DNA from: Candidatus Pacearchaeota archaeon CG1_02_32_21
GTDB lineage: Archaea > Nanobdellota > Nanobdellia > Pacearchaeales > GW2011-AR1
Assembly (NCBI GenBank): GCA_001872185.1
Contig: MNVX01000021.1
Coordinates: forward strand, 1-45,439
Direction of reading: 5' to 3'
Length of the DNA: 45,439 nt
The stretch's first letter is position 1, and each line of letters starts with the position of its first letter. The translations under genes and the position numbers were made by a program. Shown one piece after another: positions 13,333-26,563 of the stretch. Under the pieces are notes generated by a model. That model did no database searches. It had not been told where the DNA came from and saw only the letters and a list, made by a program, of their open reading frames with translations.

Positions 13333-13965
13333 TTATTTCTTCAATTCAAACTCTAAGTTAATTATTGATTTGAATTTGTTATTAAGTATTGCAATAATTG
13401 GAGAAAAGGCTTCTTCAATCTCAAGAAGTATTTTTGTGTCTTTTAGGTCAAATTTAACATCTTTTCTAATGAAATAGTCTGTAATTGCCTGAATTTTTTC
13501 ATTTATATCGTCTACCTTACGCTTTATTGTAAATTCATAACTAACTATTTTTCCAGATAATGGATTGTTAAAGTCAACTAGCACTCTCCCTCCTGAAACA
13601 CTTACAATCTTAACAAGCATGTTATCTAAAGCAAGAGTCATGCCTTGTTTAGGAAGTATTTTTTGTTGTGTAAAAACACTTAATGGAATTAACCTGACCA
13701 AAGAGCTTTTTCTTTCCTGAAATGCCTCACTAGGAAGCAAATCGACTGAAGAAGTTTTTCCAATTTCTTTTCCATTGAGTGATTTGTCAAGTCCTTTAAT
13801 AACCATCTCCTGCCCGATACATAAAATAAATGGCTTGTCGTCAATTTTTAGTCCGATTTTCTTAGCTTCTTCTGAAATATTTGTATCAAAAACCTCTCCA
13901 TTTTTAACTTTTCCTATAAATTCTAATTCAATAAAGTCATTCTTTTTTACTTTTTCCATTGCCAT
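13333..13965 (-). CDS. FKBP-type peptidyl-prolyl cis-trans isomerase (archaeal long/SlyD-like)
   Basis: DFIELEFIGKVKNGEVFDTN...FILCIGQEMVIKGLDKSLNG is an FKBP core with an IF-domain-like insert. Confidence 0.8.
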   Translation of the reverse strand: MAMEKVKKNDFIELEFIGKVKNGEVFDTNISEEAKKIGLKIDDKPFILCIGQEMVIKGLDKSLNGKEIGKTSSVDLLPSEAFQERKSSLVRLIPLSVFTQQKILPKQGMTLALDNMLVKIVSVSGGRVLVDFNNPLSGKIVSYEFTIKRKVDDINEKIQAITDYFIRKDVKFDLKDTKILLEIEEAFSPIIAILNNKFKSIINLEFELKK

Positions 13966-13986
13966 GAAGAAAGAATTAAGGTAAGG

Positions 13987-13994
13987 TTTATAAA
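13987..13994. promoter_or_regulatory. Single palindromic TATA box shared by divergent FKBP and aIF5A genes
   Basis: TTTATAAA is its own reverse complement. It lies 21 nt from ATG 13965 (-) and 21 nt from ATG 14016 (+). Confidence 0.6.
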
Positions 13995-14015
13995 TCTATT
14001 TTTCTGAAGTTAATT

Positions 14016-20759: not shown

Positions 20760-21464
20760 ATGGATTCGTTTATAAAAAAGATATTCGATAAAAAAGAAGA
20801 TAATTTTGTTCATATCCAATTACAAAAATTTAGCAAGGGCTTATTTAAAAATAAAGCCCTGATTAAAGCTTCTAAATCTGGTTCAAATTATTCAATCAAT
20901 ACAACTGCAGAATATGCAAATGAACTTGTAAGAAGTGTAGCAGAATTGCTTGATGATGGACAAAAAGTCAAAACAATAGGAATAATAGTTTCTACAAGGG
21001 ATCTATCAAATGAACTTTCTTTTAAAAATAAGAAACAGTTTATGGGAATAAAGCAATATGTAATTGATTCTGAAATGACTAAAAAACAAATAATTGAAAT
21101 ATGTGACAAATTTCCTGCATCATTTATTGGTTTATCATTTTCAGTAAATGGAACAGAACTTAAGATAAAGCCTAAAGCTCCAAAATCAGCTAAACCAAGT
21201 ACAAAGGAAGATGGAAAGTTCAAAGTTGACTTTTGCAAGATAAAAACTGGTAATGAAAAATTGGTCAGAAGCTTATTGTTTGATGTTTCTGAATTCAAAA
21301 AAGTAGAAATATTTCATGATTTTGAAATTACAGGGTTAGACATACCTAAAAATGAGTCAGATCCTTTGAAAATGAGAGAAAATACAGTAAGAAATGGTAA
21401 GTTAGTAAGAAAATTAGTTGTAGACGGCAAAAATATTGAAAAAGTTGTTGAATTCTCTGCGTAA
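20760..21464 (+). CDS. Hypothetical soluble protein
   Basis: 234-aa ORF, Lys-rich, with no motif I can recognise. Confidence 0.6.
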   Translation: MDSFIKKIFDKKEDNFVHIQLQKFSKGLFKNKALIKASKSGSNYSINTTAEYANELVRSVAELLDDGQKVKTIGIIVSTRDLSNELSFKNKKQFMGIKQYVIDSEMTKKQIIEICDKFPASFIGLSFSVNGTELKIKPKAPKSAKPSTKEDGKFKVDFCKIKTGNEKLVRSLLFDVSEFKKVEIFHDFEITGLDIPKNESDPLKMRENTVRNGKLVRKLVVDGKNIEKVVEFSA

Positions 21465-21475
21465 GATAAAAACAA

Positions 21476-21496
21476 GGGAGTGTCGCAGATTAGGGA
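21476..21496 (+). repeat. Left terminal inverted repeat (IRL) GGGAGTGTCGCAGATTAGGGA
   Basis: Matches the reverse complement of 25165-25185. It contains the transposase stop codon and is preceded by the 9-bp target duplication. Confidence 0.75.
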
Positions 21497-22728
21497 GTTA
21501 TCATCATTTTCTCCTCTCCTGTCACATTGCGGGAGTTTTTTAATTTAATTGCATTTAATAGCATAGTTTCCCAAGCATTTCCATTTATTCCTATTCCACA
21601 TTTATCAGCAGGAGTTAAGTTTTCTCTTGCGTTTTTTCTAACAAAGTTATGAAATACCTTAAACCCGTCTTGATATTCTTGAACTTTTGTAACTCCTCGC
21701 CTTACTTTGTGAAACTCTTTTTGATGTGAGTGATGGCTTTCTATTGCGTTGTTGTTTACAGCTTTTCTCTGTCCTTTGATTGAAGTAAACTTGACCTTTC
21801 TTTCATTGCCCCAATTTCTAAAAGTTTTTCTACATCCATCTTCATAACCTTTGTAACCATCAACGATTATCTGAAAAGGTATTTTTCCGTTTTGTTTGTA
21901 TGCTTCTGTAAAAACTTTCTGTGCGTCTTTGCTACTTCGGCTTCTGCCAGAATTTATAGAGGCAAGTAAAAATTTAGTTTTATTATCCATTACATTCCAA
22001 ACATAATCATAATTTCCAGTAAGATTACCTTTTTCTTTTCCTCTCTTGCTTAAAACCAAAGTTTCATCAGCGTTCCAAACCCCAGAAGTTTTAGGAGTTA
22101 GAGTTTTGCTATATTTTTCCATAACTTCTGTAAATCTTAAAACCCATCTTCTTATTGTTTCGTGATGTAATTTTAATCCATAGAATTGATTAAATTGGTC
22201 TGCAATATCCCTATAAGATAATCCTTTGTAATAGCAATCCATAGCCAAACAAACAAGTTTAGCATTTCCTTTAATGTATTTAATTGGTTCTAAAACAAAT
22301 CTCTTTTTACAATCCTTACAGCTAAATCTTTGTTTATCGCTTGTTTTATCGTGCCTTACTCCTCTTTTGATTAAATTTTGAGATTGGCAGTAGGGACAGC
22401 AGTTTTCAGTTGGTTTTTCTAAAATTAATTCTATTTCTTGTTTTATTGGTGTAGCTTCAATTTCATAATGATTTTTTAGTTTTTCAAATATTAGAATAGC
22501 TTTGATATGTTTGCAGTATAATCCTTTTCCCTTACATCTTAATTCAAAATCCTTACAATTACAAGAATAACTATCAAAATGAGTAACTTGATATTTTTTA
22601 TTGCTATCAAATTGAGAAGGAACTAAGTAAGTATTCTCATCTAAACATTCTGGTTTAGAGTTTTCTAATATCTGTCTTGCTCTTTGCTCTCTCTTATCTG
22701 AAAGTTGTTTTATTGTTTGTGTTATCAT
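21490..22728 (-). CDS. DDE transposase (IS6/IS240-like core) with N-terminal SWIM zinc finger and IS1-style zinc ribbon
   Basis: SWIM: YSCNCKDFELRCKGKGLYCKHIKA. Ribbon: CCPYC..QRFSCKDCKKRF. DDE core: VWNADETLV / IIVDGYKGY / NNNAIESHHSHQKEF. Confidence 0.85.
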   Translation of the reverse strand: MITQTIKQLSDKREQRARQILENSKPECLDENTYLVPSQFDSNKKYQVTHFDSYSCNCKDFELRCKGKGLYCKHIKAILIFEKLKNHYEIEATPIKQEIELILEKPTENCCPYCQSQNLIKRGVRHDKTSDKQRFSCKDCKKRFVLEPIKYIKGNAKLVCLAMDCYYKGLSYRDIADQFNQFYGLKLHHETIRRWVLRFTEVMEKYSKTLTPKTSGVWNADETLVLSKRGKEKGNLTGNYDYVWNVMDNKTKFLLASINSGRSRSSKDAQKVFTEAYKQNGKIPFQIIVDGYKGYEDGCRKTFRNWGNERKVKFTSIKGQRKAVNNNAIESHHSHQKEFHKVRRGVTKVQEYQDGFKVFHNFVRKNARENLTPADKCGIGINGNAWETMLLNAIKLKNSRNVTGEEKMMITP

Positions 22729-22752
22729 TTTTTTTATTTCCTTATTTATCTA

Positions 22753-22815
22753 TATACTATTTAGGTATATAGAGTATTTAAATATTATTGTAGTAGACTA
22801 TACTATTTAGGTATA
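22753..22815. repeat. Two identical 17-bp direct repeats TATACTATTTAGGTATA (each an inverted TATAC/GTATA pair)
   Basis: Copies at 22753-22769 and 22799-22815, in the divergent transposase/cargo intergenic region. Copy 1 overlaps the predicted transposase TATA box (22750-22757). Confidence 0.8.
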
Positions 22816-22902
22816 CCCTTTTTTATATATGTTTAATCCTGTATATAACAAAAGGTTTATATAGTAGTGTCACTTTAAAATACTGAGGTTAATTATATAA
22901 AC

Positions 22903-23109
22903 ATGGCAGAACGCAGTATTAGTATGAAAAAAGAGGAATTTGGAGTAAATGTTCTTATAGTGGGTCATAGATGTTGGCGTTGTAAACACGCTTGGGTTCC
23001 TCGTGATATAGGAGAAATACCTGAAATTTGTCCTAAATGTAAAAGTCCATATTGGAAAAAACCTAAGACTTTATTTAAAAAAGGAGAGAAGAAAAATGGA
23101 AAAAAATAA
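22903..23109 (+). CDS. Small zinc-ribbon protein, first gene of the cargo operon
   Basis: HRCWRCKHAWVPRDIGEIPEICPKCKSPYWKKP with a Lys-rich tail. GAGGT lies 13 nt upstream, and the ORF overlaps the methyltransferase start by 14 nt. Confidence 0.7.
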   Translation: MAERSISMKKEEFGVNVLIVGHRCWRCKHAWVPRDIGEIPEICPKCKSPYWKKPKTLFKKGEKKNGKK

Positions 23110-24307
23110 TCATCTTAATACTATCCTTGAAAAAAGTAAGAAACATTTGATATTAGAATTTGGAGAAGCGGAAGCTCAAGAATTTATAAAAGAAGTTAAA
23201 TTAAAAATAAATTCTAAAGAAACTAAGGAGATTATCCAGCAGTTTAATGAAATATATGTAAAAAAAATAAAACAGAAATATCAAAAAGAAACAAGCCCAG
23301 AATATGATAAAAAATTATTTAGCTTCATAAAAAAAGATAATAAGAAAATAAAAATAGTTTGGGGGGATTGTTATGAAAACTTAAAAAAGTTACCTTCTGA
23401 AAGTGTGCATTTAATGGTTACTTCTCCACCTTACTATAATGCAAGAGAATACTCTCAATATGGAGATTTAAATAAATATCTTGATGATATGAAAAAAATA
23501 ATTTCTGAATGTTATAGAGTTTTAGACAATCATCATGTATTTGTTTTTAATGTTGGAGATATATTTGATAATGATAATATTACTACTAAATCAGTTTGGG
23601 GAGATAGAAGATTACCTCTTGGTGCTTACTTCATAAAAATATTTGAAGAAGTGGGTTTTACTTTTGTAGATGATTTTATCTGGGATAAAGGAGAAGTCCA
23701 AAGCGAAAGACATAAAAATGGAAATAATCCTTATCCATTTTATCAATATCCTATGAATTGCTATGAACATATTTTAATATTTCATAAGCATAGATTAGAT
23801 AATACTCATTTTCCTTGTCCTGTTTGTGGAACATTACAAGTAAATAGCAACACCCAATCAGAAATAGGTTTAATGTCTTGGGAATGTAAAAATTTAGAAT
23901 GTTTTGAAAGAAGTGCAAGTGATAGAGGCAAAAGATTTTCATTAAAAACAAATATGACACAAAGCCCATTAATTAGGGAAGGAAACGAAGTTCCACATGA
24001 TTTAATTAAAAAGTGGAGAAGGGATATAATTAAATTTTCTCCTGTAATAAAAATAAATAGTAAGGGAGAAAATAAATTAGGACATACTGCACCATTCCCA
24101 GAGGATATACCTGAAATAGCAGTTTGGTTTTATTCATATAAAGGAGATATAGTTTTAGACCCTTTTGCAGGGAGTTTTACAACTGCAATAGTTTCTAATA
24201 AATTAGGTAGAATAGGGGTAGGTATGGAATTAAGAAAAGATTTATTTGAAAATGCAATAAAGGATAATCTTAATAAAAAAGAACAGGATTTTGAGGAATT
24301 TAATTAA
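23096..24307 (+). CDS. DNA methyltransferase, beta-class N4/N6 family (motif IV SPPY before motif I)
   Basis: LMVTSPPYYNAREY (motif IV) ... VLDPFAGSFTTAIV (motif I, FxGxG-like). A Cys4 ribbon CPVCG...ECKNLEC lies between them. Confidence 0.88.
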   Translation: MEKNNHLNTILEKSKKHLILEFGEAEAQEFIKEVKLKINSKETKEIIQQFNEIYVKKIKQKYQKETSPEYDKKLFSFIKKDNKKIKIVWGDCYENLKKLPSESVHLMVTSPPYYNAREYSQYGDLNKYLDDMKKIISECYRVLDNHHVFVFNVGDIFDNDNITTKSVWGDRRLPLGAYFIKIFEEVGFTFVDDFIWDKGEVQSERHKNGNNPYPFYQYPMNCYEHILIFHKHRLDNTHFPCPVCGTLQVNSNTQSEIGLMSWECKNLECFERSASDRGKRFSLKTNMTQSPLIREGNEVPHDLIKKWRRDIIKFSPVIKINSKGENKLGHTAPFPEDIPEIAVWFYSYKGDIVLDPFAGSFTTAIVSNKLGRIGVGMELRKDLFENAIKDNLNKKEQDFEEFN

Positions 24308-25153
24308 TTATTCTAAGGTTTTAAAGTTATTTTCAAATTTTTTCCATTTTCCATAATCTTTAGAACTGAAATGTTGTCTATCTTGGTCTTTTAAAAAAGA
24401 TGTTCCTTTCATTGAATTACCCATAGTTTTAATAAAATCTTGAACAGACATAACTAAAAAATTAGGTTTATCATTATCATCTATTAAACACCAAATAAAG
24501 AAATGGTCTTTAGATAATATCATATCTCTTGGTTTATGGTCTGTTGCATAGGTATTTTTTGATTTTTCTCCAATATATTCTACTCTTGAAGATTTTACTT
24601 GTATTGACCTAAATTTAGTTTTATATTCTTTAGAACCACAATCACAATAATAATTAATTAACTTTACTTCTCCGCCACACTTATCACAAGTAGGAATAAG
24701 AGTAAAATTATCTACTCCTTTATTGTCACATTTTTTACAATTTGTGCTACTTCCTTCTGTTTTTGTTTTACACTTATTACATATTTTTATAGGTTTAATA
24801 TTTCTCTTTTCAGTTTTAGAAAAGTCTTTATGGCATTTATCACAAATTAAAGAAGGTGTCATAGCCCAATTCTTACCACATTTAGCACAAGCATATTTAT
24901 GTGCAATAATATCAATATATTCGTCATACATAGGACTATACACATTCCAACCATGTTTAGATAATTCAAAAGAAACCAAAAACTCACCATATCTTGAAAA
25001 GTGTTTTACATTCAAATCCGAAGTGGTTTTATATTGTCCTTCTTGAGTTTCTTCTGAATCTTCATTTTCTATATTATCTCCCACTAATCCCTTTTCCATG
25101 AATTTACAACAGAAATCTAATATAAAAACTTTCCTAAGTCCCTCATGCGACAC
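24308..25153 (-). CDS. Putative PD-(D/E)xK restriction endonuclease interrupted by three zinc ribbons
   Basis: GEFLVSFELSKHGWNVYSPMYDEYIDIIAH ... IQVKSS (D...QxK-type nuclease motifs), separated by six CxxC-type pairs. It lies tail-to-tail with the methyltransferase with 0-nt spacing. The track start is GTG 25153; ATG 25099 is an alternative. Confidence 0.6.
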   Translation of the reverse strand: MSHEGLRKVFILDFCCKFMEKGLVGDNIENEDSEETQEGQYKTTSDLNVKHFSRYGEFLVSFELSKHGWNVYSPMYDEYIDIIAHKYACAKCGKNWAMTPSLICDKCHKDFSKTEKRNIKPIKICNKCKTKTEGSSTNCKKCDNKGVDNFTLIPTCDKCGGEVKLINYYCDCGSKEYKTKFRSIQVKSSRVEYIGEKSKNTYATDHKPRDMILSKDHFFIWCLIDDNDKPNFLVMSVQDFIKTMGNSMKGTSFLKDQDRQHFSSKDYGKWKKFENNFKTLE

Positions 25154-25164
25154 TAAGTTTCAAG

Positions 25165-25185
25165 TCCCTAAATTGCGACAAGACC
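25165..25185 (-). repeat. Right terminal inverted repeat (IRR) TCCCTAAATTGCGACAAGACC
   Basis: Its reverse complement GGTCTTGTCGCAATTTAGGGA matches IRL 16/21. A subterminal partial copy at 25141-25157 shares AGTGTCGCA. It is followed by TAAAAACAA. Confidence 0.75.
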
Positions 25186-25198
25186 TAAAAACAATATC

Positions 25199-25206
25199 TT
25201 TATAAA
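25199..25206 (+). promoter_or_regulatory. TATA box of the L3 ribosomal-protein operon
   Basis: TTTATAAA lies 68 nt upstream of ATG 25275. The leader contains the perfect palindrome GGATTAATTAATCC (25219-25232). Confidence 0.55.
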
Positions 25207-25274
25207 CACTCTTTTTTTGGATTAATTAATCCGTAAGAAGCCTAAAATGGTAATACTCCGCAAAAAAGTAGACT

Positions 25275-26228
25275 ATGGCAAAGCTATCAAGACCGAGAAG
25301 AGGAAGTTTGCAGTATTGGCCCCGAAAACGGGCTAAAAAACTGATTCCTAGTGTTAACTGGACAATTATTTCTTCAAAGAATTCTGATAAACAAATTTTA
25401 GGTTTTATAGGTTATAAGGTTGGCATGGCCAGTGCTTATGTTAAAGACAACACAGCTGATTCTATGACTAAAAGTAAAAGAATTAGCATTCCTGTTACGA
25501 TCATTGAATGCCCTAAACTAAAAATACTTTCTACAAGATTTTACAAAAATGGGCAGGTTATTGGTGAAGTTGTAAATAAAAACTTAAACAAAGAGCTTGT
25601 GAGGAAAATAAAGATTCCAAAAAAGATATCTAAAAAAATTGAAGATTACAAAGATTATGATGATATAAGAATTGTTGTTTATACTGACCTTAAGAATTTC
25701 ATCAAAAAAAATCCTGATATACTTGAAGTGAGCCTTGGAGGGAGTTTAGAAAATAAATTATCTTTTGTTAAAGAGCATATTGACAAAACAATAAGCGTTT
25801 CGGAGGCACTTCAACAGGGACAGTTAATTGATGTTAAAGCAGTTACAAAAGGTAAGGGGTTACAGGGACCTGTCAAAAGATTTGGAGCAGGATTAAGACA
25901 GCACAAGGCTGAAAAGGGAGTTAGAAAAATAGGGTCTATTGGACCATGGCATCCTTCAAGGGTTAGTTTTAGAGTTCCAATGGCTGGACAGATGGGATTT
26001 TTTAATAGAATACAATATAATAATAAAATTGTTTTTGTGAGCAATACTTTTGATAATAACATCAATCCTTCTGGAGGATTTAATCATTTTGGTAACATAC
26101 AGGGTGATTATATTCTTGTTACGGGAAGTGTGCAGGGACCTGCAAAAAGACAGCTTGTTATAACCCATCCATTAAGAGCAACAAAAAAACAATCTAAAAA
26201 AAATTACGAGTTTATTGAACTAAGATGA
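25275..26228 (+). CDS. rpl3: Ribosomal protein uL3
   Basis: MAKLSRPRRGSLQYWPRKRA..; 317 aa; first gene of the conserved operon. Confidence 0.95.
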   Translation: MAKLSRPRRGSLQYWPRKRAKKLIPSVNWTIISSKNSDKQILGFIGYKVGMASAYVKDNTADSMTKSKRISIPVTIIECPKLKILSTRFYKNGQVIGEVVNKNLNKELVRKIKIPKKISKKIEDYKDYDDIRIVVYTDLKNFIKKNPDILEVSLGGSLENKLSFVKEHIDKTISVSEALQQGQLIDVKAVTKGKGLQGPVKRFGAGLRQHKAEKGVRKIGSIGPWHPSRVSFRVPMAGQMGFFNRIQYNNKIVFVSNTFDNNINPSGGFNHFGNIQGDYILVTGSVQGPAKRQLVITHPLRATKKQSKKNYEFIELR

Positions 26229-26563
26229 AAATGAAAAGAACATTGCCTCACCAAAATCCATTAGAACATGCGAATGTATATTTGAATAAAGCTGAAGAAT
26301 TATTAATCGGATACTCTAGCAATCATAATATTCCTAGAATCATAAAAAATCAATATAAAATTTTAAGAGAACTTGCAGAAAGTTTTGGTGCAGAAGTTTC
26401 TGGATTACCAGAAAGATTAGATATGTTAGACAGGACTGAAGAGTTTGTAGCTGAATATAGAGAACCTGCTATTGAAATGGTTGAAGAAACTCGTGAGAGA
26501 TTATTTGATCCAAAAATACCAAGTTCATGGGAGGACTTACCGGATAAGTATTCTATAAGATGA
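26225..26563 (+). CDS. Acidic hypothetical protein inserted between L3 and L4
   Basis: 112-aa ORF with ATGA overlaps to both the L3 stop and the L4 start. No r-protein-like basic character and no recognisable motif. Confidence 0.6.
   Translation: MKMKRTLPHQNPLEHANVYLNKAEELLIGYSSNHNIPRIIKNQYKILRELAESFGAEVSGLPERLDMLDRTEEFVAEYREPAIEMVEETRERLFDPKIPSSWEDLPDKYSIR

Follow-up and report, generated by a model that had tools for sequence, protein, structure and literature searches.

A Cargo-Carrying Transposon Upstream of the Ribosomal-Protein Operon of a Pacearchaeota Archaeon and Its Promoter-Proximal Relatives in DPANN Archaea

The Locus and Its Features

We analysed contig MNVX01000021.1 of Candidatus Pacearchaeota archaeon CG1_02_32_21 (assembly GCA_001872185.1) and refer to the whole stretch of 45,439 nt as the window. 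The window corresponds to contig PFOU01000025.1 of NCBI assembly GCA_002792685.1. With a G+C content of 31.7%, it carries an archaeal ribosomal-protein operon, the first gene of which (L3) starts at 25275. Upstream of this operon lies the subject of this work, an element of 3,710 bp (21476-25185) with imperfect terminal inverted repeats (TIRs), outside of which a 9-bp duplication, TAAAAACAA, is found. The element contains genes for a transposase, a Zn-ribbon protein and a DNA methyltransferase, together with an open reading frame (ORF) that we call ORF4. Its features and the adjoining host sequence are listed below with coordinates, strand and the basis of each assignment; L-numbers denote contigs or loci from genome and metagenome collections.

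21467..21475, no strand: left copy of the target-site duplication TAAAAACAA, 9 bp (sequence; single copy in the empty-site contigs L016, L021 and L026)
21476..21499, + strand: transposase-proximal TIR, outer transposase site, GGGAGTGTCGCAGATTAGGGAGTT (position conserved in 110 family loci)
21490..22728, - strand: transposase, 412 aa (Pfam, NCBIfam, homolog alignment)
21520..21537, + strand: inner copy of the end motif, TGTCACATTGCGGGAGTT, within the transposase gene at its 3' end (spacing to the outer copy 39 nt)
22729..22902, no strand: divergent control region with two operator-like palindromes around the transposase TATA box (sequence, co-variation)
22903..23109, + strand: Zn-ribbon protein, 68 aa (CxxC...CPxC), probable DNA-binding controller (family co-occurrence)
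23096..24307, + strand: Type II DNA methyltransferase of the N6-adenine/N4-cytosine class, 403 aa (Pfam, PADLOC)
24308..25099, - strand: ORF4, 263 aa from ATG, probable cognate restriction endonuclease (homologs, invariant residues, gene pairing)
25117..25129, - strand: TATA-like promoter element of ORF4, reverse complement GTTTTTATATTAG (ATG about 27-29 nt downstream)
25136..25152, - strand: inner end-motif copy of the distal end, reverse complement TGTCGCATGAGGGACTT (spacing to the outer copy 28 nt)
25162..25185, - strand: distal TIR, reverse complement GGTCTTGTCGCAATTTAGGGACTT (sequence)
25186..25194, no strand: right copy of the target-site duplication TAAAAACAA (sequence; empty-site contigs)
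25195..25206, + strand: host target outside the element, TATC resembling a transcription factor B recognition element (BRE), then the TATA box TTTATAAA of the L3 operon at 25199-25206 (sequence, family flanks)

The left repeat GGGAGTGTCGCAGATTAGGGA (21476-21496) agrees with the reverse complement of 25165-25185, GGTCTTGTCGCAATTTAGGGA, at 16 of 21 positions, and the transposase-proximal TIR overlaps the stop codon of the transposase gene. The TAAAAACAA repeat is exactly 9 nt long, since the adjacent bases differ. The repeat core TGTCGCANNTTAGGGA has two matches in the 45-kb window, both at the element ends (0.13 expected), and none of 100 shuffled sequences yielded two. A preliminary description of this DNA had reported the inverted repeats and the duplicated 9-mer, and we located all of them at the coordinates that it gave; the inner copies of the end motif (21520-21537 and 25136-25152) were absent from it.

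Empty Sites and Mobility

Empty sites were sought through contigs encoding the exact proteins that flank the element. In three such contigs from three JGI samples (L016, L021 and L026), position 21475 is joined to 25186 with one copy of TAAAAACAA, precisely the empty site that the preliminary description had predicted, and the flanks are 99.8-100% identical to those of the window. One sample, 3300025150, holds both the filled (L006) and the empty (L026) allele. Other contigs stop exactly at the border 21475 (L017, L018) or begin exactly at 25186 (L025, L027, L028, L029), and contig L004, 3,830 bp long, consists of the element with exactly 60 nt on either side. Such border breaks, together with L004, are the signature of an assembly-graph bubble between filled and empty alleles. 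Given the empty-site joins and the border breaks, the whole 3,710 bp, no more and no less, represents an insertion with a 9-bp target duplication, and the data demonstrate a clean insertion/deletion polymorphism of this unit.

Evidence from relatives leads in the same direction. The elements of L115 and L116 contain a transposase gene and genes for a 45-aa ribbon-helix-helix (RHH) protein and an 800-aa Type IIG restriction-modification (R-M) enzyme; the two elements show 100.0% identity along all their 4,117 bp and lie in different metagenomes, at different sites and between different 9-bp duplications. Identical whole elements at two sites prove that transposase and cargo move together. Further pairs of whole elements at different sites are collinear, with 77-87% identity. 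Thus, everything by which an autonomous DNA transposon is recognized was found, namely TIRs with a target-site duplication, the site in its empty form, and identical elements inserted in different places. The idea put forward in the preliminary description, that the four genes form one mobile unit between the repeats and the duplication, is borne out by the precise empty sites and by the L115/L116 pair of relatives; it had proposed a search for further copies of the ends and for empty sites, and relatives with the same ends as well as empty sites turned up. Overall, we consider it very probable that the region 21476-25185 is an autonomous DDE transposon belonging to a DPANN-archaeal family related to IS6.

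The Transposase and Its Family

To delimit relatives, we fetched 136 loci from genome and metagenome collections and required a terminal repeat with a matching 9-mer on both sides. A strict search with fixed core and offsets gave 11 elements; with a relaxed core, the 9-bp duplication still being required, 63 loci were delimited, corresponding to 54 distinct elements. There are, hence, at least 54 distinct relatives in Pacearchaeota and Nanoarchaeota, from 2,348 to 7,084 bp in length, nearly all with perfect 9-bp duplications. Spread of the family by viruses is not supported, only two of its members having been found in viral contigs. An Rfam scan of the window element revealed no RNA family.

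Every end carries two copies of a bipartite site of about 19 nt, which in the window has the form TGTCGCA-N5-GGGAnTT. In 52 of 54 elements, the outer and inner copies of the distal end are 27-28 nt apart; for the transposase end, a spacing of 39 nt was found in 40 of 54. Among subfamilies, the two half-sites change together, the inner copy with the outer one, and such co-variation is typical of binding sites that coevolve with their transposase. We suppose that the 412-aa transposase would bind the two bipartite sites at each end, pair the ends and integrate them at the upstream edge of a BRE/TATA element.

The transposase itself combines a SWIM zinc finger (residues 54-80), an IS1/IS1595-type Zn domain (111-146) and an IS6-like DDE core (156-364). 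Its catalytic residues D221, D290 and E330 are invariant in an alignment with 13 homologs that are 70-85% identical to it. Pfam returned DDE_Tnp_IS240 (E = 1e-9, 39.1 bits, passing the cutoff of 27) along with SWIM, and the best match of the core was the NCBIfam IS6 model NF033587 (E = 4.6e-27, profile positions 8-202 of 202). A PDB sequence search with the transposase gave no match at E <= 1. The protein has 488 homologs, the best 120 of which are 69-100% identical to it; the named hosts among the homologs listed are Pacearchaeota and Nanoarchaeota.

Some homologs depart from this scheme. Those in L030, L041, L042, L044, L046, L050, L052, L062, L063 and L066 end at about residue 394-402 and have no terminal inverted repeat; similar conserved sequence follows downstream in L041, L042 and L066. 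Such homologs may be decayed or domesticated copies. In L173 (GCA_038045725.1, positions 1-742), the same Zn-ribbon gene, an operator palindrome TATACCTAATAGGTATA and an R-M layout stand beside a transposase-like gene whose product begins directly with a CPKC...CKSC zinc domain and lacks the SWIM region. L173 represents a related element type with a shorter N-terminus.

Insertion Next to Archaeal Promoters

In the window, the TATA box of the L3 operon begins 4 nt past the right-hand duplication. The preliminary description had placed the element 4 bp upstream of this box, and this position stands; it had, however, regarded it as an oddity of a single copy, whereas it turned out to follow a family-wide targeting rule. 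With the element ends as the reference point, we aligned the outer flanks of all 54 elements and looked for the strict TATA pattern YTTAWA; a looser count accepted offsets 12-15. In 18 proximal and 21 distal flanks, the pattern starts exactly 13 nt from the element end (offset 13, made up of the 9-nt duplication and 4 nt more), against 0-5 at any other offset; these 39 of 108 flanks compare with 0.37 expected (binomial P = 2.7e-67). At least one side has an offset-13 TATA in 38 of 54 elements, a number that rises to 46 of 54 with offsets 12-15. Both orientations are equally frequent and share the same offset. When the data were collapsed to 51 flank-independent sites, 37 of 102 sides had an offset-13 TATA. 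The A at position 10, which is not a part of the search pattern, is 97% conserved and belongs to an R-A-W-A-A-N stretch immediately upstream of the TATA, which is a BRE-like element.

Genes reading outward are found on 29 of 37 TATA sides and on 23 of 62 other sides (P = 7e-5), and their modal distance from TATA to ATG is 29 nt. Of 30 ordinary genes in the window, 10 start with the same -29 geometry, so the TATAs in the flanks are real promoters, mostly those of leaderless genes. Relative to the first TATA base, the staggered 9-bp cut spans -13 to -5, with -4 to -1 left in between. The possibility that the TATA boxes are parts of the elements was rejected, since they are located beyond the duplication, in most cases next to just one of the ends, and the empty site has its TATA box as well.

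A second insertion at the same place deserves a comment. Locus L015 (ENA ERZ17912254, NODE_48195) has the same host flank from a near-identical host and an identical junction base (L015 1392-1420 corresponds to window 21458-21500). The L015 element is 94% identical to L099 over 2.95 kb, 96.6% identical to L101, and 81% identical to the window transposase gene; its cargo differs and includes a 480-aa protein with a GGQHRNQAI (DGQHR/ParB-like) motif. As the L015 element belongs to another lineage, two family members must have independently hit the same nucleotide upstream of the L3 operon. We also considered L015 as an in situ recombinant of the window element, whose first 62 nt it shares; this was rejected because L015 matches L101 and L099 throughout, those 62 nt included.

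Such evidence induces us to suggest, with somewhat more confidence than doubt, that the family selects its targets by the archaeal pre-initiation architecture, that is, by BRE/TATA or by DNA bent by the TATA-binding protein (TBP) and transcription factor B (TFB). It would then be the first case of a DNA transposon of prokaryotes that homes to core promoters, as well as the main mover of R-M and other defence systems between DPANN genomes. The promoter might be read directly by one of the extra N-terminal zinc domains, or the transposase might capture TBP/TFB-bent DNA. Since the BRE begins within the nine bases that are duplicated, the host promoter would be rebuilt intact, and the element would thereby rest in a harmless "safe harbour" even before the L3 operon.

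The defence-carrying, promoter-homing transposon family of DPANN archaea appears to be undescribed; our searches of open-access literature gave no description of the element family or of promoter-targeted archaeal transposons, a description elsewhere being possible. For a target rule of exactly 4 nt upstream of TATA in either orientation, we found no precedent in archaea. Besides illustrating how a selfish element can sit harmlessly before an essential ribosomal-protein operon, with the BRE rebuilt by the duplication, the family offers a testable system for promoter reading by a single-protein DDE transposase. If our interpretation is true, archaea have here an equivalent of Ty3/Tf1 targeting, and this one-protein transposase could be turned into a tool for safe-harbour insertion close to archaeal promoters.

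Cargo Genes

All 54 elements carry cargo, which amounts to 1-6 kb per element and comprises 197 ORFs in 86 clusters. The annotated cluster representatives are overwhelmingly defence genes. They comprise Type IIG restriction-methylases, Type III mod/res pairs, C5 methylases with partner ORFs, N6/N4 methylases, Type I/II specificity subunits, GmrSD-HNH nucleases with EcoRI-like methylases, SoFic, RelA/SpoT-like PDC-S33 and DUF488 PDC-M19A/B. The gene adjacent to the transposase usually codes for a small DNA-binding protein, a Zn-ribbon one in 16 elements and an RHH one in others. A survey of archaeal immunity from 2026 (PMC12988326) reported that the small genomes of DPANN archaea contain few R-M systems but show an enrichment of SoFic and PDC, and drew no link to transposons. 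The elements described here, with SoFic and PDC among their cargos, provide a concrete vehicle for the exchange of defence genes in DPANN archaea.

One cargo module recurs in 7-8 elements. Designated c6-c7-c8-c16 after its clusters, it encodes an 88-aa winged helix-turn-helix-like protein, proteins of about 370 and 71 aa, and an RHH protein of about 60 aa. It was found in L048 (8106-9834), L076, L094, L100, L155, L162, L039 and L070, often beside R-M genes, and had no match in Pfam or PADLOC. We regard this module as a candidate new defence system, and unannotated cargo modules of this kind are ready candidates in the search for new archaeal defence systems.

Within the window element, the 403-aa protein is a clear Type II N6/N4 methyltransferase (Pfam N6_N4_Mtase, E = 9e-34; PADLOC MTase_II, E = 1e-92), with SPPY and FAGS motifs in its sequence. 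ORF4 requires a more careful treatment. Its mechanical call (24308-25153) begins at a GTG inside the inner end repeat; this GTG at 25153 is an unlikely start, and the ATG at 25099 is favoured by the gene callers of public assemblies, by the homolog alignment and by the TATA located about 27-29 nt upstream, the same sequence being conserved at the distal end of L010. ORF4 had no family match in Pfam, NCBIfam or PADLOC. Its 170 homologs (57-96% identical) occur in DPANN archaea, bacteria of the candidate phyla radiation (CPR), WOR-3 and Deltaproteobacteria, and their alignment reveals invariant E45, D59, D63, K68 and Q167-x-K169 flanking a Cys-rich insert. Such a motif is compatible with a PD-(D/E)xK nuclease interrupted by a Cys-rich Zn insert.

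In Kuenenbacteria and WOR-3, a homolog of ORF4 is located directly downstream of a gene for a 409-aa N6_N4 methyltransferase, with no transposase nearby; because the two are paired there too, ORF4 and the methyltransferase constitute a conserved module. ORF4 is thus a probable restriction endonuclease. We considered ORF4 as a TnsA-like nuclease of the transposition backbone as well. This was rejected, since L010 has the same transposon frame with a C5 methylase and an unrelated partner ORF, and ORF4 accompanies the methyltransferase in bacteria. The R-M-like module proposed in the preliminary description is supported by a clear methyltransferase and by ORF4 as its conserved partner in CPR and WOR-3 bacteria. 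We suppose that the cargo would act as a Type II R-M pair of an N6/N4 methyltransferase and a PD-(D/E)xK-like nuclease, the latter with its own promoter in the distal end. The pair probably benefits the element through post-segregational stabilization and the host through defence against viruses.

The Zn-Ribbon Protein and the Divergent Control Region

The gene for the Zn-ribbon protein overlaps the start of the methyltransferase gene by 14 nt and has a TATA 29 nt upstream. In the control region between this gene and the transposase gene, the palindrome TATACTATTTAGGTATA occurs at 22753-22769 and 22799-22815, once on each side of the transposase TATA box. Across 16 elements, the sequence of the palindrome changes together with the subtype of the neighbouring Zn-ribbon protein. 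The Zn-ribbon cluster, c0, is found beside the transposase in 16 of 54 elements, where its partner genes are of at least five kinds, and the window protein is 41% identical to the copy in L010 (E = 7e-12) despite the different methyltransferase family there. There are 53 detectable homologs, 62-94% identical and mostly on short contigs; two that we examined on longer contigs stand beside a related transposase or a remnant of one. Hence, the Zn-ribbon homologs appear to be confined to the element family, and the protein would belong to the backbone and not to the exchangeable cargo.

Taken together, the arrangement and the co-variation suggest that the Zn-ribbon protein might be a controller-like repressor, with the palindromes as candidate operators. 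Co-transcribed with the methyltransferase, it probably binds the palindromes that bracket the transposase promoter. Such binding would couple the expression of the transposase with that of the R-M genes, as a C (controller) protein does.

Alternative Explanations

Two alternatives to an autonomous transposon concern what actually moves. One might see here a short, transposase-only insertion sequence (IS) beside an independently acquired R-M island, the distal repeat and 9-mer being coincidental or the remnant of a second IS in a composite or pseudo-compound structure, as with IS26. The IS6 family classically mobilizes cargo as pseudo-compound transposons between two IS copies (PMC7986276), and the inverted repeat of the window is imperfect, with the 16 of 21 matches given above. 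However, what is missing from the empty sites is the entire 3,710 bp, one 9-mer being retained, and whole elements are collinear at different sites, one pair being 100% identical. The preliminary description had noted no second repeat copy between the transposase start and the cargo; indeed, there is none in the window element or in 101 of 105 family loci, a weak repeat-like match near the transposase start being seen in only 4 of 105. Furthermore, none of the 54 delimited elements is transposase-only, there is no second transposase copy, and the distal end has a conserved doubled-site architecture of its own. The idea of an IS beside an island is thus already contradicted, and we consider it very unlikely. 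Alternatively, the element might be mobile with its R-M genes or a host recombinase driving the movement and the transposase a passenger or inactive. For IR-flanked R-M units, Furuta et al. 2010 (PMC2853133) remained undecided between R-M gene products and a trans-acting transposase. In our family, though, the cargo is unrelated among elements (N6/N4, C5, Type IIG, Type III, SoFic, DUF488 and others), the only constants are the transposase, the end sites and the 9-bp duplication, and the DDE residues are invariant among the 13 aligned homologs of the window transposase; we give this scenario even less credence than the previous one.

A third alternative concerns the target rule. Insertion might be nearly random, and in compact genomes, only insertions sparing genes and promoters would persist. 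DPANN genomes are gene-dense: the upstream gene in the window ends 2 nt before the duplication, and at most 10 nt is free on the other side in 5 of 32 measurable cases. It is also important to note that our data come from fixed or segregating insertions, not from new ones. However, survivorship predicts a spread of positions, and what we see is a single-nucleotide peak at offset 13, the same in both orientations, with two different family members at the same base. On the other side of the insertion, the median length of free non-coding DNA is 54 nt, and 22 of 32 cases have at least 30 nt. Since with a median of 54 nt many harmless positions are left unused, survivorship alone does not explain the precision; we find it improbable, if less so than the two scenarios discussed above.

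Certain points weigh against our own interpretation of a promoter-homing, IS6-related transposon with R-M cargo. With the strict pattern, 16 of 54 elements have no offset-13 TATA on either side, and with the loose one, this is so in 8 of 54; either the targeting, though strong, has exceptions, or part of the promoters deviate from the canonical pattern. Our data would fit direct reading of the sequence and recognition of DNA bound by TBP/TFB equally well. All of the evidence is comparative, and we infer catalysis, de novo transposition and the chemistry of transposition. The transposase scores 95.1 bits against NF033587, under the curated IS6 cutoff of 125. Its AlphaFold model (built from the 13-sequence alignment) has a pLDDT of 44 and was unusable, so that the roles of its domains come from sequence profiles only. 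The model of ORF4 (pLDDT 80) has no significant fold match in PDB, the best being DpnI (E = 0.03, TM < 0.25); the top nuclease folds, namely DpnI, the DREN domain of SPARDA and PvuII, are all non-significant, and we did not use them as evidence. Finally, the co-variation between Zn-ribbon proteins and palindromes could equally reflect co-inheritance with the transposase subtype.

Other Features of the Window

Downstream of the insertion, a perfect palindrome GGATTAATTAATCC lies at 25221-25234, in the 76-nt stretch from the TATA box to the start codon of L3; most genes of the window are leaderless. The palindrome may form a regulatory hairpin in the leader of the L3 operon. Between the L3 and L4 genes, there is a 112-aa ORF (26225-26563) that overlaps each of them by 4 nt and has no Pfam match; an extra gene at this point is unusual for a highly conserved operon.

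Elsewhere in the window, the 50-nt spacer 13966-14015 separates two divergent genes starting at 13965 (- strand) and 14016 (+ strand). It contains a single palindromic TTTATAAA (TATA at 13987-13994), located exactly 29 nt from both start codons, which appears to be a shared bidirectional TATA box. The 12555/12654 gene pair may have the same geometry.

Comparison with Known Systems

The closest known relatives of our family are IS6 elements, including IS26. Reviews describe them as 700-890 bp long, with 8-bp duplications, a transposase gene only and a single 14-bp TIR (PMC7986276, Varani et al. 2021), the TIR signature being a GG start with G at position 7 (PMC6807381, Harmer and Hall 2019). 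One passenger-carrying member (ISDsp3) is listed, and long zinc-finger transposases are known only in Clostridia; archaeal members come from Halobacteria, Thermococcales, Methanococcales and Sulfolobales, DPANN being absent from the published clades (PMC7986276, PMC6807381). Several traits are shared: the DDE core is best matched by the IS6 family profile, a single transposase gene reaches the element end with its stop codon within the inverted repeat, and the post-E motif E-x-H-H-x-x-x-K is close to the bacterial E-DH---K. The window TIRs, GGGAGTGTCGCA and GGTCTTGTCGCA, start with GG and have G at position 7, and the family consensus is GRGAGTGT..., i.e., with a GG or GA start.

Other traits differ. 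Duplications are 9 bp long in the window and in the family, not 8 bp; elements measure 2.3-7.1 kb (3,710 bp in the window) instead of 0.7-0.9 kb; and cargo is always present, inside one pair of inverted repeats, whereas with IS26, the mobilized DNA lies between a pair of IS copies. The transposase site is doubled at both ends, with an asymmetric spacing of 28 nt at one and 39 nt at the other; the transposase is extended at its N-terminus by a SWIM finger and by a Zn domain of the IS1/IS1595 type; the elements reside in DPANN archaea; and they insert precisely next to promoters. IS6 elements transpose by way of cointegrates, in a replicative or in a conservative, targeted manner; no cointegrate or tandem-copy arrangement was seen here, in metagenome contigs that would be unable to reveal one. 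As the family departs from IS6 in duplication length, size and gene content while sharing core similarity and the TIR signature, we treat it as IS6-related but distinct. The "IS6-type" label of the preliminary description is thus right as to the nearest relative and fails as strict membership, given 95 versus 125 bits, 9-bp duplications and doubled end sites. The family adds a well-delimited clade to the debate on archaeal and long-transposase "IS6" membership.

Furuta, Abe and Kobayashi 2010 (PMC2853133) described bacterial R-M units flanked by inverted repeats, with 8-bp duplications and mostly without a transposase of their own; their filter retained nothing from archaea, and they reported no family, exchangeable cargo or target rule. 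As in our case, R-M genes lie within inverted repeats with a short duplication, and empty sites are found by genome comparison. Those units are isolated bacterial cases, whereas ours form an archaeal family with its own transposase, 9-bp duplications, exchangeable cargo and a target rule.

The target rule itself has its nearest parallels among eukaryotic long terminal repeat (LTR) retrotransposons, whose integrases are tethered by host factors. Ty3 inserts at start sites of RNA polymerase III (Pol III) via TFIIIB, Tf1 at Pol II promoters, and Ty1 upstream of Pol III genes. What our elements share with them is a fixed short distance to a core promoter element, an intact downstream gene and a "safe harbour" within a compact genome. 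Unlike them, the family described here consists of prokaryotic DNA transposons, and the archaeal BRE/TATA may be read directly.

Finally, Tn7-like transposons employ TnsA, B and C with a target selector and insert with 5-bp duplications, in one orientation, at one attachment site. Together with the CRISPR-associated transposons (CASTs), they are site-selective bacterial cargo transposons that carry defence systems (the "guns for hire" concept), and they resemble our family in their variable defence cargo, conserved multi-site ends and a harmless, conserved kind of target. In contrast to these systems, the DPANN elements have one transposase and 9-bp duplications, insert in both orientations, and can use many promoters.

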